From a virus (Duplodnaviria > Heunggongvirae > Uroviricota > Caudoviricetes), in the IMG/VR virus record IMGVR_UViG_2740892423_000009: DNA of 6,903 nucleotides, one strand, 5' to 3'. This document shows positions 91 through 6,903 of the stretch, piece by piece (position 1 is the first letter of the stretch; the number at the start of each line of letters is the position of its first letter). The notes beneath the pieces were generated by a model that was not told the DNA's origin, did no database searches, and saw only the letters and a program-made list of their open reading frames with translations. The translations under genes and the position numbers were made by a program.

Positions 91-540
91 CTACCCAGCA
101 TCATCGTTTATGATTCTAGTGATTATGGTTTCGTATGCAGTATCACAGCAATTGCACTTATAAGAAACTTTTGTGTCTAATCCTTTATAATCTTCTAACA
201 ATCCAACTAAAACCATATCTTTGCGTTCCAGCACATTGCTTGCTTTATCTAATACAGCTTCCTTATCTCTATTCTTTTTCTTAGGAAGTTTTAATGATTC
301 TTTATAGCATTCAAGACACGCACCTTGTTTTTTAAGAGTTTTGAAAGCAATTGTTCGCGTTGTGCTATGTTTCTTGCAGGTTATAGAAACGGGTGTATGT
401 TGCCCTTTCCACGGCACAACAAAACCGTTATAGATGTACCCCAACTCATCACAACGTTTAATGGCAATAGGTTCATAGTCAAGAGGCGTTTTTCTTGTAA
501 ATCCGGTGTAGTTGATATATTCAGCAAATAAAATCTCCAT
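91..540 (-). CDS. hypothetical Cys-rich, putative zinc-binding protein, 149 aa
   Basis: SD GGAGGA 4 nt upstream of the ATG at 540-538. Motifs C-x2-H-x16-C-x2-C (ITCKKHSTTRTIAFKTLKKQGACLEC) and C-x-C-C (YKCNCCDTAY) suggest a zinc ribbon or treble-clef. Tyr/Gly-rich N-terminus (EYINYTGF, LGYIYNGF). No HNH or GIY-YIG signature I can confirm. Confidence 0.7.
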   Translation of the reverse strand: MEILFAEYINYTGFTRKTPLDYEPIAIKRCDELGYIYNGFVVPWKGQHTPVSITCKKHSTTRTIAFKTLKKQGACLECYKESLKLPKKKNRDKEAVLDKASNVLERKDMVLVGLLEDYKGLDTKVSYKCNCCDTAYETIITRIINDDAG

Positions 541-548
541 GATTCCTC

Positions 549-578
549 CAAATAAAAAAGCGACCGAAATTGGTCGCT
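549..578 (-). terminator. rho-independent terminator (bidirectional-looking) between the 115-aa and 149-aa genes
   Basis: Stem agcgacc (559-565) and ggtcgct (572-578) with loop gaaatt. On the minus-strand RNA it is followed by UUUUUUAUUU (revcomp of 549-558), which runs straight into the GGAGGA SD of the 149-aa gene. On the + strand it is followed by cgtatttatt. Confidence 0.55.
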
Positions 579-592
579 CGTATTTATTAGAG

Positions 593-940
593 TTAGATGT
601 ATTCCATTATATACCCGGTAAATCTGAGTCCTTTAATGTAGTAATTAGTTGTGCCTACACACACCGCGCGTGCATCACCCAGACAGTTAAAACTATAAGG
701 ATTAACTACATCGACTTCTTGCCCGACACGAAAACGATACTTAGGACGTTTAGCCAATGTAGCGACACAAAACACGGTCCCTTTTTCATGATCGCGGATA
801 CATTCTTTATATTGTTTATGTTTAACTCTCTTCGCCTCAAAATCATAAGTCATTGATTCTGGACTAATGCCATTAATAAAAATACCGGAAAGCTGATCGA
901 CCGGATAAGTAGGAAATTCAGTGAAAATATTTTTAGCCAT
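593..940 (-). CDS. hypothetical protein, 115 aa
   Basis: ORF from the track with SD GGGGGT 5 nt upstream of the ATG. Protein MAKNIFTEFPTYPVDQLSGIF... contains four Cys (ECIRDH, FCVATL, FNCLGD, AVCVG). No family recognised. Confidence 0.65.
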   Translation of the reverse strand: MAKNIFTEFPTYPVDQLSGIFINGISPESMTYDFEAKRVKHKQYKECIRDHEKGTVFCVATLAKRPKYRFRVGQEVDVVNPYSFNCLGDARAVCVGTTNYYIKGLRFTGYIMEYI

Positions 941-944
941 GTTA

Positions 945-970
945 TACCCCCATAAGATTCTATGAGGGTA
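945..970 (-). promoter_or_regulatory. hairpin overlapping the SD of the 115-aa gene (possible translational control element)
   Basis: Inverted repeat tacccccata (945-954) and tatgagggta (961-970), 10 bp with one C/A mismatch and a 6-nt loop. On the mRNA the GGGGGU SD sits in the 3' arm, 5 nt before the AUG at 940. No U-tract follows, so it is not a classic terminator. Confidence 0.3.
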
Positions 971-978
971 TTTATGGA

Positions 979-1662
979 TTAAACGTATCTCATGCGCGAT
1001 TTAATGTGCTTATTAATGTTCTTAAGCATCATTTCCTCGTTGCTTTCCCACGATCCTAGCGTCGAATAACGAGTAGAAATTTTATCCGACTTAACGGCAA
1101 CAATTCGCTTACTCTGTTTCTGGATGCGTTTCTCTAAGCGACGTTTTGCCACCGCCGATCCATTCCTAGCGCGTTTGGTTCGGGATTTCTTAGGCTTGTA
1201 CTTCTTCATGATAAAAGTTCCTTCCTTGTTTTCTACCTTGATGAAGTTGCCGTTTTCGATGTTACGCATCATCTTACCGCCTTTGATGGCCTTAATGTTC
1301 CCGTGGGCGTCTAAGACCTTACCGTTAGCGATTGGCACTAGCTTATTGATTTTGCCACCATCGAAATAGTGTTTCAGATAGTCATCCTGACTGCCGATCT
1401 TCTTGTCCTTATCCCTTGCGCCCTTGATGAAGATTTGGTGTCTCGTCCCTGATCGGTTCTTGTAGTTGGTATTACCTACAGCTTGTTGAGTCCATCGAGT
1501 AGGTCTATCAACATTCTTGTTAATCTTCTTCTGGAGTGCTCTGGAAGCAAAGATCGCCCCTTCCCCTAGTGCCCTTTCGAATGTATCGGTTGCCTTTTCA
1601 GACCATTGCCGTAACGCTTTCTTAGTCCTTAGAGCGTTTCGTTTATTGGTACTGGTTGCCAT
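979..1662 (-). CDS. hypothetical strongly basic Lys/Arg-rich protein, 227 aa; possible nucleic-acid-binding or virion-internal protein
   Basis: SD AGGGGG 5 nt upstream of the ATG at 1662-1660. By my hand count about 57 Lys+Arg against about 19 Asp+Glu, with basic runs KKYKPKKSRTKRARNGSAVAKRRLEKRIQKQSKR. No catalytic motif recognised. Confidence 0.75.
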   Translation of the reverse strand: MATSTNKRNALRTKKALRQWSEKATDTFERALGEGAIFASRALQKKINKNVDRPTRWTQQAVGNTNYKNRSGTRHQIFIKGARDKDKKIGSQDDYLKHYFDGGKINKLVPIANGKVLDAHGNIKAIKGGKMMRNIENGNFIKVENKEGTFIMKKYKPKKSRTKRARNGSAVAKRRLEKRIQKQSKRIVAVKSDKISTRYSTLGSWESNEEMMLKNINKHIKSRMRYV

Positions 1663-1663
1663 G

Positions 1664-1834
1664 TTAGCCCCCTAATAACGAAAAGACCCCCGCCAGTGTC
1701 CTTAGCAATTGTTCATCCACGGTCATAGCCGGGAGTTCAAGCCCAAAGGACGTTAGCAGAGGTCTAATAGCTACGTTATAAGTGAGGGCGACAATCAAGA
1801 GATAACCAAAATATTTCTTAAGTTTATTCTTCAT
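1664..1834 (-). CDS. small hydrophobic membrane or secreted protein, 56 aa (not in the supplied ORF track)
   Basis: Hand translation of the minus strand gives MKNKLKKYFGYLLIVALTYNVAIRPLLTSFGLELPAMTVDEQLLRTLAGVFSLLGG*. SD AGGGGTG lies 5 nt upstream of the ATG at 1834-1832. Basic N-region plus hydrophobic core, no Cys, so not a lipoprotein. Stop TAA (1666-1664) is 1 nt from the next gene's ATG (TAACATG), implying translational coupling. Confidence 0.5.
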   Translation of the reverse strand: MKNKLKKYFGYLLIVALTYNVAIRPLLTSFGLELPAMTVDEQLLRTLAGVFSLLGG

Positions 1835-1852
1835 ATATTCACCCCTTTATTA

Positions 1853-2131
1853 TTATTTTTGTTTGAGTATGTCGAGAACTTGGTCAAATTTAGCATCCAT
1901 CGCAACCACTTTCTTCTCTATACCGTGTAGTGTTTGTTCCATTTGGTAAACACGTTCAGCAATCTGAGTATGGTTATTCTGCATCGTCTCAAACTTCTGG
2001 TTTAACAATGCGTCGCTGGATTCCAATTTAGATAACCTATTTTCAGTTGCTAATTGATTTCGGTGAAGTCTCCAAAGACCACCGCAAATTAAGGCGATAA
2101 CACCGATACCGCCATATATAATTTCAGTCAT
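1853..2131 (-). CDS. hypothetical single-pass membrane protein with a long coiled-coil domain, 92 aa
   Basis: ATG at 2131-2129 preceded by CGGGGGCGTA. N-terminal hydrophobic helix IIYGGIGVIALICGGLW followed by RLHRNQ, then about 70 aa rich in heptad-like Leu/Ile/Val/Met spacing (LSKLESSDALLNQKFETMQNNHTQIAERVYQMEQTLHGIEKKVVAMDAKFDQVLDILKQK). Three consecutive TAA stops. Confidence 0.7.
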   Translation of the reverse strand: MTEIIYGGIGVIALICGGLWRLHRNQLATENRLSKLESSDALLNQKFETMQNNHTQIAERVYQMEQTLHGIEKKVVAMDAKFDQVLDILKQK

Positions 2132-2170
2132 TACGCCCCCGATATTTTTATAATTTCATGGCAGAATTAT

Positions 2171-2216
2171 TTAGATAAAAATAATCCCGCCTAACTCAAA
2201 AGAATTAAGCGGGATT
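2171..2216 (-). terminator. rho-independent terminator downstream of the J-like gene
   Basis: On the minus-strand transcript: stem AATCCCGC (2216-2209) and GCGGGATT (2190-2183), extendable through a U-G wobble plus UAA/UUA, with a ~10-nt loop, followed at once by ATTTTTATCT (revcomp of 2173-2182). Lies 20 nt after the J stop. Confidence 0.6.
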
Positions 2217-2235
2217 AATTATTAAAATTAAATTT

Positions 2236-5200
2236 TTAAGAAACAGTAATACCCGTAGTAGCTTTTTTAGTTACCATTACAGTTAAATCACTGATCCATG
2301 TGCTAGGCGTCCAGTTGTTGATTGCGCTTGATTGCACTTCAAAGGTCAAGGTCACAGCACCTTTACCCGCTGGCATATCAATAACACCTGAGTAAAGACC
2401 AGTATTACCGCCATACGCCCTATTATACAACTCTGACCCATTCTTACGAACAATCAGGCGACAGGTGTCGTAATAGGTATTATTGTTCGACCCTTCACGC
2501 GCTCGCAATCCACCAAAACTAATTGCCGGAATAACGATTTGACGATCGAACTTGTGATCATCTTCAACGCGAACGGTTACTGTACCTTGCGGATAGCCAC
2601 CATAACCATTATCAACGTTAACATCACGGTGTGGGAACTTACGACCAATCACCTTAACGAAATCACCCTTAACCTGAGTAGCTTCAAGCATACCCTTAAT
2701 AACACAGCTAGAGTTAATCGTGACGTTGTTCAGAGTACCGGAATCAGCCGTGATATTACCTTTAACGGTAGCGTTCATGAACGTAGCACTACCGTTCTTA
2801 TTGATATGCCATCCGGTAGATCCGTTCCAGTTGGAAGACTGGATATAGTTACCGATTTTAGCGTTATCAATTGCGCCATTTACAATCTTGGCGTTGGTGA
2901 TCGCGCCGTCTTGGATTTTCGCTGAATTGATCGCAGCATTGCCAATTTTAGCCGTGGTGATACTAGCATCAGTAATCTGTGCTGATCCGATTGAGGCATT
3001 ACGAATCATCGCATTATCGAGATAAACCTTGTTACCTTCGATACCAAACGGGCAAACATCGGTCCCGTTCTGCGGAGCTACAGCAATTTTATCAGCCGTA
3101 AAGATGATTTTAGTCGGTTGTGCCGGATCGTTAGTTGCGCTCATGTGAATGCCAGCCACGCGACCATCTGCATTAACTGCTAGATTGTATTTGCTGTTAA
3201 TGGTTCCCTTCAAAGCATCGATCTTAACGTCCGCTTCCTGATTCACACCAGCAATCTTGCCATCCATTTCTACCCGAACTTGGTCAATCTTACTTGCGCT
3301 TGCTGCTTCACTGGTAGCAATAGCTTGTTTCAGGGTTGTAGCGGAGGCGCTAACTTCTTTGGTGATATCGCCTTTCAGTTCAGCTTTAACCTGATCAATC
3401 TTAGTTGAACTTGCCTTATCACCAGAAGCAATCAGACTCTTTAAGGTATCGGCTGAGGCTTGAACAGTTTTACCCGTCTCGGTAGTGATTTGCTTATGCA
3501 TTGCATCAATTTTAGCATCGGCATTAGCGCCAGCTTGAGCAATAGCATCAGCGATGGTTTCATCTAAGCGATCTTGTAAACCAATCAGGTCTTCCAGTGC
3601 TTCTTTGTCCTGATCGTCCCAGCTAATGGTAGATTTCATTTGCATGAAATACGGTTCAGACCAAACAGCATCATCCATACCGAAAATATCGTAGTGAGCA
3701 CCACGGATATAATAATCACCGTCAGCAATATCAAAGGAAGTATGGCTAACACTATTCGTGCTTACTGCCCTTGCATCTGAGAAAGTGTTGTCGGTTGCAT
3801 ACTGGATGATTGACCCTGCATAGTCATGTTCTACGTCATCCGCCCAGCTAACAAACGCAGTATTAAAGCCACCACGCGCACTAAAACCTTTCATTGGCTT
3901 ATGTTGTGGGTTGATAGCCACTAAACGCGCTGGGGCGCTCTCTGAGTTGTTATAGCCCTTAGCTGATACTTCTACCGTCAGTTGACGCGAAAGGCCGTTA
4001 AACTGGTTCATATCAAGCGTATAAGTCCATGATTCAGGATCGCGGGTACGGTACTGAATAGACTTACCAGCCTTGTTAGTCACCTTGATAATGTATGCTT
4101 CAAACAGGTCACTAAACTTGTTAGTTTCACCGTTGATCATCACATCTAATTGTTGCTGGTTTTCCCATTCGATAATCAGATCATTACCTTCGAAAGTTCC
4201 TGGCGTGCTACCCTGATTTTTGATTCGAATAACCGGAGTCGGCAATTCATAGGTAACGGTAGGATTCTGGTTAACCAGTTCTACCCAATCGGATCGCGCG
4301 ATGATACCGAAAGCACAAACTCGATAATCGTAGGAACGATCTTTTGCCAGTGCATTGACACTGAAAATTTGCTGTGAAGTCTGTCCCAACTTAATCCAGT
4401 TAGGTGATCCGCTTACACGGTAATCAATCTGGAAGCCGTAGCGGTTAAAATCTTCCGGTGCATCCCATGTCAAAGTAACGTTTTTACCGTAAATCGTCTC
4501 GCCAGTTGCCTTAATTCTGAAATTAGTAGGCTTCTGTACTGTCATTGAATCCGGTAAACCACTTGGTCTATTGTCTGGAGTTGCCGCATAGTTCAGGTCA
4601 GTATAAACCTGAGAATTATATTCTGTAGCGGTGATAGTCATCATCCCAGCAATACCAGAATCAATAGAACGATCAATTGCGGTAATACGCCAAAGTGAAT
4701 TATTCAGTTTCAATTCATCATAGGTTACGCTGATAACGTCCCAAACTTCGGCAGTGAATGCGTCAGTAGTCATAAAGCTGATAACCTGAGTGATACGAGA
4801 TTTATTTCGTTCTACACTCGCAAGTTTATCAATCTGGGCTTTAGACTTAACAAAACGATATTCAATATCTTTAGCGATAATTCGACCATCTTGACGAATA
4901 GTAGCATCGTTTTCAGCATCAGCCGGATAACGTAGCATTTGCTCGGAATAGTCAATTGATGGTTCCTGATACATCGCGTTAATGGTATTGAAATAACCGT
5001 TAGTGCCACCTGTTTTCAGTGATACCTTACCCATCATGATATTGTCTTCATTGAAGGTATGCTTAACAATATCAGGAGCATCCAGTTTCAGGGTAATTCT
5101 TCCGAAGGATTCGAACATCACCCCGCCGAAAGTCTGCATAAGGCTAGTTAAGTTCTCTTTAAAGCTGGCGTTCGGATCACATGCACCGTTTGAATGCAAA

Positions 5201-6012
5201 TCCATCTGGCGTACTTGCTTACGTACTTTCAGGAATGAATCAACGTTAATGTTTTCAATTGGTACGGATAAGCCATATTTTTCATTTGTTAGGTAGTGGA
5301 AAATCTGGTCCACGCCGTTAGTGCTAGCCTCAATAGCATTGGTTTCAAGGTTACGAATCTTTAAGCCCATAACATCGACTGCCACTTGGCTATTTGGTTG
5401 AAGGATATCAACACCAGCAGCAAGAGATTTGTCATCACGACGTAACACAATACACATGGTTGCAATGCCGTTACCCTTGTAAGCATCGGTCCAGTCTGAG
5501 CCTAAATGCTGTTTTGCCAGTGACAAAGCGGTGTTAGGATTCTTACCCGTGCGGAACTCAACCTCCAACACTTTCCGGTATTCTTCTTTAATGTTGCCCT
5601 TATCGAGAATGCCATCACGGATCGTCATGTTCTTACCAACAAGAACATTTTTATTATCGATAAACAGTGCTTTGTAGTGGTCGATTTCACCCTCTGCTAC
5701 AGCGAAGATTTGCACTAACTTATTGTTTTCTCTTTTAGAAATTGCTTTGTAAACGCAGTTTGTACCAGTACGGGTAACACCGAAAAGAACGGGTAATACT
5801 GTCTTCGGATCGTTTGATGTTCCTAGTGTCACCGCATTATCTGGGCTTTGTACTTTAGGTGTTTTTGGTGCGCCTACAGTGGAAGCGATCAAGGTCATTG
5901 CACCAGCAGCCATACCGATAGCGACTGCGGTCATAACAGAAAATGTTGCGGCTGCCGCCATCCCCGCCGAAGCACCAGCGATCACCGCGCCTACCAATAT
6001 TTCAAATCCCAT
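2236..6012 (-). CDS. central tail fibre / host specificity protein, lambda gpJ family, 1258 aa
   Basis: Long uninterrupted ORF with SD GGGGGTGA 3 nt upstream of the ATG. Residues ~495-790 form three tandem FN3-like segments (e.g. [28 protein letters not shown]...YDYRVCAFG). Residues ~940-1000 ([32 protein letters not shown]...[12 protein letters not shown]) and the C-terminal ~180 aa ([17 protein letters not shown]...[12 protein letters not shown]...[16 protein letters not shown]...[16 protein letters not shown]) resemble the equivalent lambda J regions as I recall them (lambda: SGTLSNVTIAENCTINGT...DDHPFDRQIVVLP...VDMPAGRGNVILTFTL...VQVMVIKKQALGISVV). Confidence 0.93.
   Translation of the reverse strand: [1258 protein letters not shown]
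2848..2982 (-). repeat. about 30-bp in-frame tandem repeats encoding decapeptide fibre repeats I-x-x-A-K-I-x-x-G-A
   Basis: Protein [43 protein letters not shown] (residues ~1011-1055). DNA shows recurring ttttagc / atcttggcg / attttcgctg / attttagccg units. Confidence 0.6.
3178..3615 (-). repeat. in-frame degenerate repeats encoding an Ala-rich coiled-coil segment of the J-like protein
   Basis: Protein repeats ...[11 protein letters not shown]... / ...[17 protein letters not shown]... / ...[17 protein letters not shown]... / ...[12 protein letters not shown].... Matching DNA repeats on the + strand, e.g. ggtcaatcttacttgcgcttgc (~3281), gatcaatcttagttgaacttgc (~3393), catcaattttagcatcggcattagc (~3505). 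Confidence 0.6.
5866..6000 (-). other. hydrophobic Gly/Ala-rich N-terminal segment of the J-like protein (residues ~5-49), predicted membrane-like or helical
   Basis: Translation [45 protein letters not shown] has no charged residue between E4 and K50. This is not how lambda J begins, from memory. Confidence 0.5.
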
Positions 6013-6431
6013 TATTCACCCCCGAATCTATAAACTTGTTCATAGTCAATGTCTGAAACAGGAATGGTCATCCAGATACCATCTTCTTCAACGAGGCCAT
6101 AACCGGAATAATGAGGAACTACGGAATAATAATTACGGTTTCCTAATTTGTGGGCTGTGACCAGTAAGTCGCCGTCCTGTAAATCATCAGTGACTAATTT
6201 GAAATGTTTCTTTATTGGTTGAAGGATGTTTGAATATCCGCTTAATTCTTTGCAGATTTTCAAGCCTTCTTCTTTAGTTGAATATTTTTTATAAAGAGAA
6301 TTATATAGGTCAGTACCAGCGAGAATATCGATGATCTTACATGCAATGAGATTGCAATCATTCTCGCCTTGAACGAACTCCTGACCTATTAAAGAATTGA
6401 TGTAATCGGTGATAAGCCTAGTTTTTAGCAT
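6012..6431 (-). CDS. NlpC/P60-family tail assembly protein (lambda gpK C-terminal-domain-like), 139 aa
   Basis: Start moved to the internal ATG at 6431-6429, which is preceded by GGAGGT plus a 7-nt spacer. The longer 191-aa ORF in the track would overlap the upstream ORF by about 110 nt. Protein MLKTRLITDY...ENDCNLIACKIID has a candidate catalytic Cys (codon 6354-6356) in a D-C-x-x-L context followed by conserved His residues, as in NlpC/P60 papain-like domains of gpK proteins. Stop TAA overlaps the J-like ATG by 1 nt (TAATG). Confidence 0.75.
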   Translation of the reverse strand: MLKTRLITDYINSLIGQEFVQGENDCNLIACKIIDILAGTDLYNSLYKKYSTKEEGLKICKELSGYSNILQPIKKHFKLVTDDLQDGDLLVTAHKLGNRNYYSVVPHYSGYGLVEEDGIWMTIPVSDIDYEQVYRFGGE

Positions 6432-6477
6432 GTTGAATACCTCCATGCTGTTATTTACTAGGCTTAGGGAGAAGGGA

Positions 6478-6822
6478 TTATTTCTTAGAGCTAAACCACT
6501 TCGACTCGCTTTGCCACTTCCCGGCACGAGAGAAGAATAGATCGTTCTCGTTTCCAACATAGGATCGGTGGATACCATCGGAGGCATGACTACGAGCGTT
6601 TTTATCTAGAACTTCCCAGATACTATTAAGCTGAAATTCTGATTCGTTTTTACACTCATCATCTTCATGTTCGATGTTAATACCGATGGAATCGACTACC
6701 CCACGGAAAACAGGGTAAGTAGTTTCAACCTTGCCCGTGTTGGGGTTAAGGAAAACCATCTCGATTTTCACATCAGATTTATCGAATTGCTTGTTTCGAA
6801 TCAGGCTAATTGTTGTGGTCAA
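6478..6822 (-). CDS. hypothetical tail-tip assembly protein, 114 aa; possibly a stand-alone N-terminal (MPN-like) half of a gpK-type protein
   Basis: ORF from the track. Its first codon is TTG (revcomp of 6820-6822), immediately after an in-frame TAG, with GGTGG about 10 nt upstream. Internal GTG/ATG starts lack a good SD. No clear JAMM HxH motif seen, so the MPN assignment is positional inference only. Sits directly upstream of the NlpC/P60 gene. Confidence 0.5.
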   Translation of the reverse strand: MTTTISLIRNKQFDKSDVKIEMVFLNPNTGKVETTYPVFRGVVDSIGINIEHEDDECKNESEFQLNSIWEVLDKNARSHASDGIHRSYVGNENDLFFSRAGKWQSESKWFSSKK

Positions 6823-6903
6823 CTAAAACTGGCCACCGCGTTAGAGTTTTTCCAGTATCGGTTTTCTGATTCGTTTGGTGGTAACCCACCATTATATTCG
6901 TGC
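6819..6903 (-). CDS. 3' end of an upstream tail gene (5' part lies beyond the window edge); possibly a gpL-like minor tail protein
   Basis: Minus-strand frame open from the window edge to a TGA at 6819-6821, translating ...HEYNGGLPPNESENRYWKNSNAVASFS*. The stop overlaps the TTG start of the next ORF by 2 nt. Function guessed only from position upstream of the gpK-like/J-like genes. A second frame is also open over these 81 nt, so the frame choice is tentative. Confidence 0.3.
   Translation of the reverse strand, partial: HEYNGGLPPNESENRYWKNSNAVASFS

Follow-up and report, generated by a model that had tools for sequence, protein, structure and literature searches.

What does a phage gain from an open reading frame (ORF) of only 56 codons that stops one nucleotide (nt) short of the next gene? 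Such an ORF is found on the minus strand of a 6,903-nt stretch of tailed-phage DNA (IMG/VR record IMGVR_UViG_2740892423_000009), hereafter called the window. A first-pass annotation, made from the sequence alone, had described it as a gene for a small membrane protein that is translationally coupled to the gene for a basic protein. We searched related genomes and protein collections for homologues of this micro-ORF and compared the profile of its family with known phage proteins. The micro-ORF is a genuine conserved prophage gene for a small membrane-type protein. The function that we favor, with a probability of about 0.5, is that of a truncated holin-type lysis protein, which would work with the 92-amino-acid (aa) protein encoded just upstream and would have an additional coupling role for the neck-like gene downstream.

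Conservation of the micro-ORF and its stop-start junction

The micro-ORF starts with ATG at 1834-1832, ends with TAA at 1666-1664, and encodes the 56-aa product MKNKLKKYFGYLLIVALTYNVAIRPLLTSFGLELPAMTVDEQLLRTLAGVFSLLGG (Table 1). Both the 56 codons and the Shine-Dalgarno (SD) sequence AGGGGTG given by the first-pass annotation are indeed present, with the SD ending 5 nt before the ATG, and the GGGG/GGGTG core of this SD was found at an equal distance from the start in all loci. With 54 ORFs of at least 30 aa in the window, the length of the micro-ORF alone is unremarkable; an ORF of such length can readily occur by chance, and conservation was therefore the deciding test. The reading frame was unbroken in 24 of 24 related loci (21 loci fetched at first and three further Escherichia coli genomes). 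Among 11 distinct nucleotide versions, the Nei-Gojobori ratio of nonsynonymous to synonymous divergence (dN/dS) relative to the window was 0.07 to 0.26, with dS up to 0.87 and beyond, and the pairwise median was 0.23. Variable sites at codon positions 1, 2, and 3 numbered 21, 11, and 36, respectively, the third position being the richest. A chance ORF or a decaying remnant without function would agree with the short length, the single borderline hydrophobic segment, and a prophage copy full of insertion sequence (IS) elements. However, the frame that is intact in every relative, the dN/dS of about 0.2 at such values of dS, the conserved SD, and the homologues at 28-52% identity in Edwardsiella-type and Klebsiella prophages effectively refute this explanation.

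The family was followed over a wide range of divergence. A search of 5.8 billion proteins returned 19 clusters at 77-98% identity, with E. coli and Salmonella as hosts; 12 of the clusters were 56 aa long, one was 57 aa long, and six were calls of 74-77 aa that used an upstream start. An exhaustive hidden Markov model (HMM) search of 1.84 billion representatives recovered only four 50%-identity clusters of the micro-ORF family, by which three more distant clusters of 54-66 aa were gained, and one further hit was a repeat protein for which a relationship is unlikely. None of the sequence searches, including that of the 1.84 billion representatives, reached a characterised relative. With the distant clusters included, the invariant residues were Y19, N20, V21, P25, L26, P35, G49, S52, L53, and G55. 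Positional homologues standing before the basic-protein homologue were found in Klebsiella (61 aa; 26.6 bits, E-value of 4e-7 among 1,618 ORFs) and in the phage record DCP80 (57 aa; 13.7 bits, E-value of 0.005).

The first-pass annotation had expected automated annotation to miss the gene, but this is not generally so. RefSeq/PGAP calls it WP_001406248.1, a hypothetical protein, in the three of three records whose tables were read. However, it is intact yet uncalled in three RefSeq E. coli genomes, and neither the Klebsiella NCBI record nor that of phage DCP80 has a call for the homologous ORF. A literature search for the accession gave no result.

The junction with the basic-protein gene was also found as had been described. 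After the TAA come one spacer base (C1663) and then, at 1662-1660, the ATG of the 227-aa ORF, whose product has an isoelectric point of 10.8, and the SD of this ORF (AGGGGG) is made by micro-ORF codons 54-56 (UUA GGG GGC). All close relatives, as well as the 54- and 66-aa homologues, retain the succession of stop (TAA, TGA, or TAG), one base, and start (ATG or GTG), together with the GGGG in the last micro-ORF codons. The Klebsiella version has an overlapping stop and start (TAATG), and in DCP80 the two are separated by an 8-nt gap.

Some constraint was seen at the nucleotide level as well. On the minus strand, codons 52-55 (UCG UUA UUA GGG; 1670-1681) and 15-20 (1775-1792) had near-invariant synonymous sites, with a synonymous diversity of 0.036 versus 0.388 elsewhere (permutation P of 0.0002 for a codon set chosen post hoc). 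The mRNA folded better than 200 of 200 shuffles (z of -3.07), and RNAalifold paired GCCCUC..AUAACG (codons 16-21) with CGUUAU..GGGGG (codons 52-56), so that the downstream SD is part of the paired region. Such a long-range helix could mask the SD of the basic-protein gene. Covariation gave no proof of the helix, as the paired columns are invariant and 18 of 500 shuffles reached the observed score; in several minimum-free-energy folds, the C-rich segment paired with the micro-ORF's own SD instead. We hypothesize that the coupling has a structural part of this kind.

Likeness to the Phage_holin_1 family

The micro-ORF protein has a lysine-rich N terminus, a hydrophobic helix at residues 9-27, an acidic loop (FG-LELP-AM), and a short amphipathic C-terminal helix. 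An AlphaFold2 model placed helices at residues 2-29 and 41-54 with a loop between them (mean pLDDT of 79). The membrane character suggested by the first-pass annotation is borderline in the window copy (KD19 of 1.55 for helix 9-27) and clearer among the distant homologues. By the positive-inside rule, the N terminus is probably cytoplasmic. The sequence also shows a layout like the n-h-c regions of a cleaved signal peptide, with S-F-G at residues 29-31. However, some relatives have Y or I instead of a small residue at position -3, and the h-region is the best conserved part of the protein (invariant Y19, N20, and V21), which argues for a retained helix. The protein contains no cysteine and hence no lipobox cysteine, which rules out an o-spanin (Rz1-like) identity.

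A tblastn search of 50,697 phage genomes with the micro-ORF product gave a single hit, a Listeria phage holin, which is non-significant by itself (E-value of 7); the same search with the homologue P0022 gave nothing useful. The Listeria phage holin is a member of Phage_holin_1 (PF04531; E-value of 4.5e-25), and hhalign aligned it with the micro-ORF family profile at a probability of 92.9%. We also made an alignment of ten PF04531 holins from phages of Listeria, Enterococcus, Ruminococcus, Streptococcus, Staphylococcus, Lactococcus, and Brochothrix. The family profile matched this ten-holin profile with a probability of 91.2%, an E-value of 9.8e-7, and a score of 36.1 over 52 columns, such that micro-ORF residues 3-55 corresponded to residues 7-58 of the 87-aa holin and helix 9-27 to the first transmembrane (TM) segment, TM1. 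In the controls, reversed profiles scored 12-13, and none of 300 shuffles reached 36.1 (mean of 11.5 and maximum of 23.7 for 150 column shuffles; mean of 12.4 and maximum of 27.8 for 150 within-block shuffles). Furthermore, an HMM of the ten holins scored 15 of the 17 homologues tested (core lineage, P0020, and P0021) at 12-17 bits. These scores were above those of all decoys, the other stop-to-stop ORFs of six loci in a test set of 1,618 segments, the best of which reached 5.8 bits.

Compared with members of Phage_holin_1 (phiLC3 LysA, Listeria PSA Hol, and pneumococcal EJ-1 Ejh), the micro-ORF protein has the same MK.N.K start and basic N terminus, a TM1 of equal length ending in FG, a similar loop (FG-x-x-[LI]P-A-x-T-[VI]-[DN]-x-E-x-L), and a matching start of the second helix (VF.LLG[VG]). 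The genes are alike in standing in a late unit with the endolysin gene, with a gene for a coiled-coil/TM protein of ~95 aa just before them. However, the micro-ORF protein is shorter (56 aa versus 82-98 aa for the holins), its host is Gram-negative, and its gene lies two genes before the endolysin gene and is coupled by stop and start to a gp10-like gene. The tblastn matches of holin_1 were in Firmicute phages in 122 of 122 cases.

The gene right upstream of the holin_1 gene encoded a coiled-coil protein of 93-100 aa with one TM segment in four of the four Firmicute phages checked. It was XhlA (PF10779) in EH93P1, DUF2951 in phi575, a BhlA-like protein with an N-terminal TM segment in a GBS phage, and a protein annotated as 'hemolysin' in RG-TP1. 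The gene order of RG-TP1 (tail fibre, 'hemolysin', holin, small ORF, endolysin, and, on the opposite strand, an integrase-like gene by its PHROG note) resembles that of the prophage of the window. For the lysis systems of PBSX and SPbeta, XhlA/XhlB and BhlA/BhlB are described as the membrane components (PMC6834076); a TM and coiled-coil protein of ~70-100 aa is encoded there beside a small holin, after the tail genes and before the lysin gene. They set a precedent for a lysis cassette with two small membrane proteins. The likeness of our locus to this Firmicute arrangement is one of architecture only. A review describes Ejh with Ejl as a holin-endolysin pair for lysis of the Gram-negative Pseudomonas putida (PMC11514776).

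The genomic setting is consistent with a lysis protein in several respects. In related loci, the M15 endolysin of the lineage has no signal sequence, and the phage therefore needs a holin. The micro-ORF and the endolysin gene are 1.1 kb apart in one unit, with two genes between them; the first-pass annotation had assigned the micro-ORF to an accessory region, whereas it stands inside this late unit ending with the endolysin gene. In the window's prophage, the only annotated proteins that have a TM-like segment are the 92-aa and 56-aa proteins, setting aside the tape measure protein, the tail-tip protein J, and two signal-peptide proteins. In addition, the orthologue of the 92-aa protein in the Edwardsiella-type locus L017 matches phrog_1296 'holin' (E-value of 5.8e-6). 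Across 13 loci, the pairwise identities of the micro-ORF correlated with those of the 92-aa gene (Spearman's rho of 0.87 overall and 0.67 in the close group) and of the 115-aa gene (0.79), as opposed to 0.13 for the basic-protein gene. The 92-aa protein is a probable partner of the micro-ORF protein, as a holin or as an accessory of the XhlA/BhlA type.

A number of observations weigh against a holin-type protein. Pfam, NCBIfam, and PADLOC models gave zero hits for members of the micro-ORF family, and the Pfam model PF04531 gave no hmmscan hit for 14 of 14 members even at E-values up to 10. The sole library match was phrog_2024, a phage protein family (profile of 65 positions) with no function assigned, which was weakly matched by 10 of 15 members at a best E-value of 4e-4. 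The holin signal comes mainly from the closely related core lineage (effective number of sequences, Neff, ~2), and the most divergent members taken alone did not exceed their reversed controls (18.5 versus 18.6 for P0022, and none for DCP80). The holin family was picked via the best hit in a database, so the pairwise E-value makes the match look more significant than it is; scaled to ~25,000 families, it would be ~0.02. The micro-ORF protein ends in the middle of the equivalent of TM2, where the holins go on with LGVV; TM1 (residues 9-27) is present, but the second helix of ~14-17 residues falls short of a second full TM segment. The DPTT motif and the charged hydrophilic C-terminal tail are absent, as the protein ends with ...SLLGG, and the conservation of the C-terminal LLGG is confounded by the embedded SD and is partly an RNA constraint. 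The two genes that stand between the micro-ORF and the endolysin gene are non-lysis genes, and in Klebsiella (L022) the block has no endolysin gene after it. We rejected the 92-aa protein as a homologue of XhlA, BhlA, or DUF2951, with scores equal to those of the reversed controls. In view of these points, we call the micro-ORF product a truncated holin_1-like protein and do not count it among the members of PF04531.

A candidate lysis protein and its rivals

For the truncated holin-type protein, we infer the following topology, function in lysis, association with the 92-aa protein, and mechanism of coupling. It would be a small bitopic inner-membrane protein with a cytoplasmic lysine-rich N terminus, one TM helix, and a short periplasmic loop, and its second helix would be amphipathic or half-spanning. 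As a shortened relative of the Phage_holin_1 class in the lysis module of an Enterobacterales temperate siphovirus, it would be expressed late from a unit comprising the genes for the 92-aa protein, the micro-ORF protein, the gp10-like basic protein, the 115-aa protein, and the M15 endolysin. Together with the 92-aa protein, it would form the membrane lesion that gives the signal-less endolysin access to the cell wall, or it would time that lesion. Since half of TM2 and the charged tail are missing, it may be a co-holin or an antiholin and not a stand-alone holin. A second role at the RNA level is likely, in which ribosomes finishing the micro-ORF would expose the SD of the basic-protein gene and re-initiate. 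With this SD in the last codons and the stop 1 nt from the next start, the output of the basic protein would therefore be tied to translation of the micro-ORF. A bolder form of the proposal, which we regard as doubtful, takes the 54-66-aa proteins of this lineage of Enterobacterales prophages as a 'half-holin' derived from the Firmicute Phage_holin_1 fold (TM1, loop, and half of TM2), active only with the upstream TM/coiled-coil protein and also gating the synthesis of the gp10-like neck protein. The two proteins would make up either a holin of two components or a pair of holin and antiholin in Gram-negative cells, with lysis timing linked to virion completion via the fast-evolving gp10-like neck protein.

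One rival explanation involves the basic protein. The micro-ORF product might be an assembly partner or chaperone of this HK97-gp10-like protein, made in a fixed proportion to it, with a hydrophobic helix that binds it or tethers neck/tail completion to the membrane and with no role in lysis. The two genes are always adjacent and coupled, and the basic protein resembles a virion neck component. Endonuclease VII insertions (in Klebsiella loci L022 and L023 and in DCP80) lie between the 92-aa-type gene and the micro-ORF and leave the micro-ORF/basic pair undisturbed. However, alleles of the basic protein are ~30% identical while the micro-ORF proteins are 80-89% identical, divergence of the micro-ORF follows the 92-aa gene, and the similarity to holin_1 would be left unexplained. 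We consider such a partner unlikely; functional partnership was rejected for lack of co-divergence, and we read the pair as a translational unit, not a protein partnership. Superinfection exclusion or another lysogenic-conversion function, encoded in a moron-like cassette (HK97 gp15/YebO-type or T4 Imm-type), would suit a gene that comes right after that for the tail tip and has a conserved terminator before it. A tail operon also encodes HK97 gp15, a small exclusion protein of the inner membrane (PMC3594210), and the micro-ORF product is likewise a small membrane protein encoded among the tail genes of a temperate siphovirus. However, no homology to the YebO-like gp15 was found, and the micro-ORF, for which no promoter of its own was seen, belongs to a unit ending with the endolysin gene. 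Between the terminator and the 92-aa gene, we found no sigma-70-like promoter, only an A/T-rich stretch with TATAAA-like motifs, and in intact relatives the block runs unbroken into the endolysin gene. PADLOC defence models matched 0 families for the micro-ORF and its neighbours, and Pfam also gave no hits, and an exclusion function is thus quite unlikely in our view.

A mainly regulatory leader ORF, whose translation opens the helix hiding the SD of the basic-protein gene and whose peptide is of little weight, would be compatible with the truncated holin-type protein. The position of that SD within the last codons, the fold of the mRNA, and the pairing of codons 16-21 with codons 52-56, with the near-invariant synonymous sites of the post hoc codon set, all speak for it. 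On the other hand, purifying selection acts on the amino acids over the full length, and the YN..xPL motif and the architecture persist at 28-52% identity despite different nucleotides. The helix itself has invariant columns without covariation support and competes with the alternative fold that involves the micro-ORF's own SD. As the chief explanation, a leader ORF is improbable. Among the roles listed by the first-pass annotation, the holin-like one has gained profile evidence, as opposed to exclusion and toxin roles, for which no promoter and no PADLOC, NCBIfam, or Rfam hits were found. A type I toxin (Hok/TisB-like) was rejected, as the Rfam scan of the window detected no family, no protein family was hit, and the gene lies inside the late operon.

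If the truncated holin-type protein is confirmed, the missing holin component would be identified for a lineage found in ~1% of complete E. coli genomes and otherwise without an annotated lysis membrane protein. A holin family that our searches met in Firmicute phages only would then be extended to Gram-negative phages in a minimal 56-aa form, which would be useful for asking how little of a holin is needed. The junction is a clean natural case of a coupled stop and start in which the upstream coding sequence contains the SD. On the whole, the gene, which is mostly already annotated, adds modestly to a known kind of system; the practical value lies mostly in annotation because the gene is inconsistently called.

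Neighbouring genes and the prophage

Table 1. Coordinates of the micro-ORF, its signals, and the surrounding features in the window
Feature	Position	Strand	Basis or remark
N-terminal part of CapR/endonuclease-like mobile gene, inserted before the endolysin gene	91..540	-	Cut by IS2 (1-95)
115-aa soluble protein, conserved block member	593..940	-	Found in all related loci
227-aa basic protein, HK97-gp10-like (neck/tail-completion type)	979..1662	-	Coupled downstream gene
Coupling junction: AGGGGG, then TAA, C, ATG	1660..1673	-	Sequence and conservation
56-aa micro-ORF (coding sequence including stop), WP_001406248.1	1664..1834	-	ORF list, annotation, conservation, and purifying selection
Hydrophobic helix, codons 9-27, FGYLLIVALTYNVAIRPLL, with invariant Y19-N20-V21 and P25-L26	1754..1810	-	Hydropathy, alignment
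Shine-Dalgarno sequence of the micro-ORF, AAGGGGTG	1840..1847	-	AGGGGTG = 1846-1840
92-aa protein, N-terminal TM segment and coiled coil	1853..2131	-	Hydropathy; co-divergence; match of the L017 orthologue
Intrinsic-terminator hairpin, 16 bp and T run	2182..2217	-	Between the tail-tip and 92-aa genes
Tail tip/host-specificity protein, J-like, 1258 aa	2236..6012	-	Pfam Phage_Tail_Tip, Ig_GpJ_C; precedes the block

The window represents part of a prophage in the E. coli chromosome. Its bases 96-6810 were 100% identical to strain HCP5S3_I4, bases 1-95 are the end of IS2, and bases 6815-6903 match another transposable element. The match to HCP5S3_I4 stops at 6810, and the window is therefore a different copy that was hit twice by IS elements. 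The upstream tail gene (ORF 6478-6822) is intact in HCP5S3_I4; in the window, its 5' end is followed by the mobile-element end at 6815-6903. Related copies were present in 57 of 5,426 complete E. coli genomes and never on plasmids, and the lineage also occurs in Salmonella, Edwardsiella-type, and Klebsiella hosts. Isolated phages gave no nucleotide match to the window.

In intact relatives, the prophage is ~36 kb long, of the temperate siphovirus type, and encodes a serine recombinase. The genes are ordered as terminase, portal, capsid, tail fibre, tube, tape measure, distal tail protein, hub, DUF6950, and J, followed by those for the 92-aa protein, the 56-aa ORF, the basic protein, the ~115-aa protein, and the Peptidase_M15_3 endolysin, and then by the recombinase gene on the opposite strand. 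Between the J and 92-aa genes, 9 of the 11 complete intergenic regions had a hairpin followed by a T run at the same place. The stems of distant lineages differ in sequence, and the hairpin probably attenuates transcription into the lysis-proximal genes. Integration is into hicB; this antitoxin gene is split in two strains (L001 3873-3992 and L030 3644-3952), which leaves hicA with a disrupted antitoxin. In one strain, the prophage is located beside the ycdY and csg genes (L003 16679-16798). The CapR/T5orf172-type gene is itself inserted, after the 115-aa gene and before that for the endolysin, and its uncut copy in L002 encodes 345 aa.

The basic-protein gene varies far more than its surroundings. 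Its alleles (L004-L019) encode 181-239 aa with ~30% mutual identity, while the flanking genes are 64-89% identical. In L005 and L006, for instance, the micro-ORFs do not differ at all, yet the basic proteins are 227 and 183 aa long, respectively. This suggests an exchangeable cassette for a neck-type protein under diversifying selection or frequent allele replacement. The family profile of the basic protein gave nothing significant against the sequences of solved structures, and tblastn searches of the 50,697 phage genomes with the 227-aa and 115-aa proteins gave nothing useful.

Other lysis-related genes were encountered elsewhere in these prophages. Rz-like spanins are encoded separately in L017 and L018; L017 has a probable spanin pair of 108 and 83 aa with clear Rz-like PHROG hits (9448-10022, minus strand). 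In ETEC1738, a 113-aa TM protein with a weak Rz-like hit is paired with an 81-aa protein with a signal-like N terminus (L003 15331-15947, minus strand). These pairs lie beside the recombinase gene on the strand opposite to the late operon, an unusual site for lysis genes. A 94-aa protein with three TM segments, encoded next to the small terminase gene of ETEC1738 (L026 18970-19254, minus strand), was considered as the holin of the lineage and rejected; it belongs to no PHROG family and had no match in any of the other loci fetched, among them the corresponding end of the prophage of the window.

The inserted Endonuclease VII gene (L022 6365-6847, L023 1956-2438, and L025 8349-8816) overlaps the start of the micro-ORF, and the prophages that bear it also encode T4-like UvsY, a UvsW-like helicase, and Gp38. 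DCP80 (L025, PQ671644.1 14611-33129) is classed as Straboviridae, with 141 kb and motA, yet it carries a siphovirus-type module of hub, tail-tip, and basic-protein genes, and the record may be a chimeric assembly. Both its 153-aa TM/coiled-coil ORF (7862-8323) and its 57-aa micro-ORF (8801-8974) are unannotated. In the lineage of the 66-aa homologue, genes for KwaA and KwaB (Kiwa defence) are carried as cargo right after the endolysin gene (L019 9733-11375, L020, and L021).

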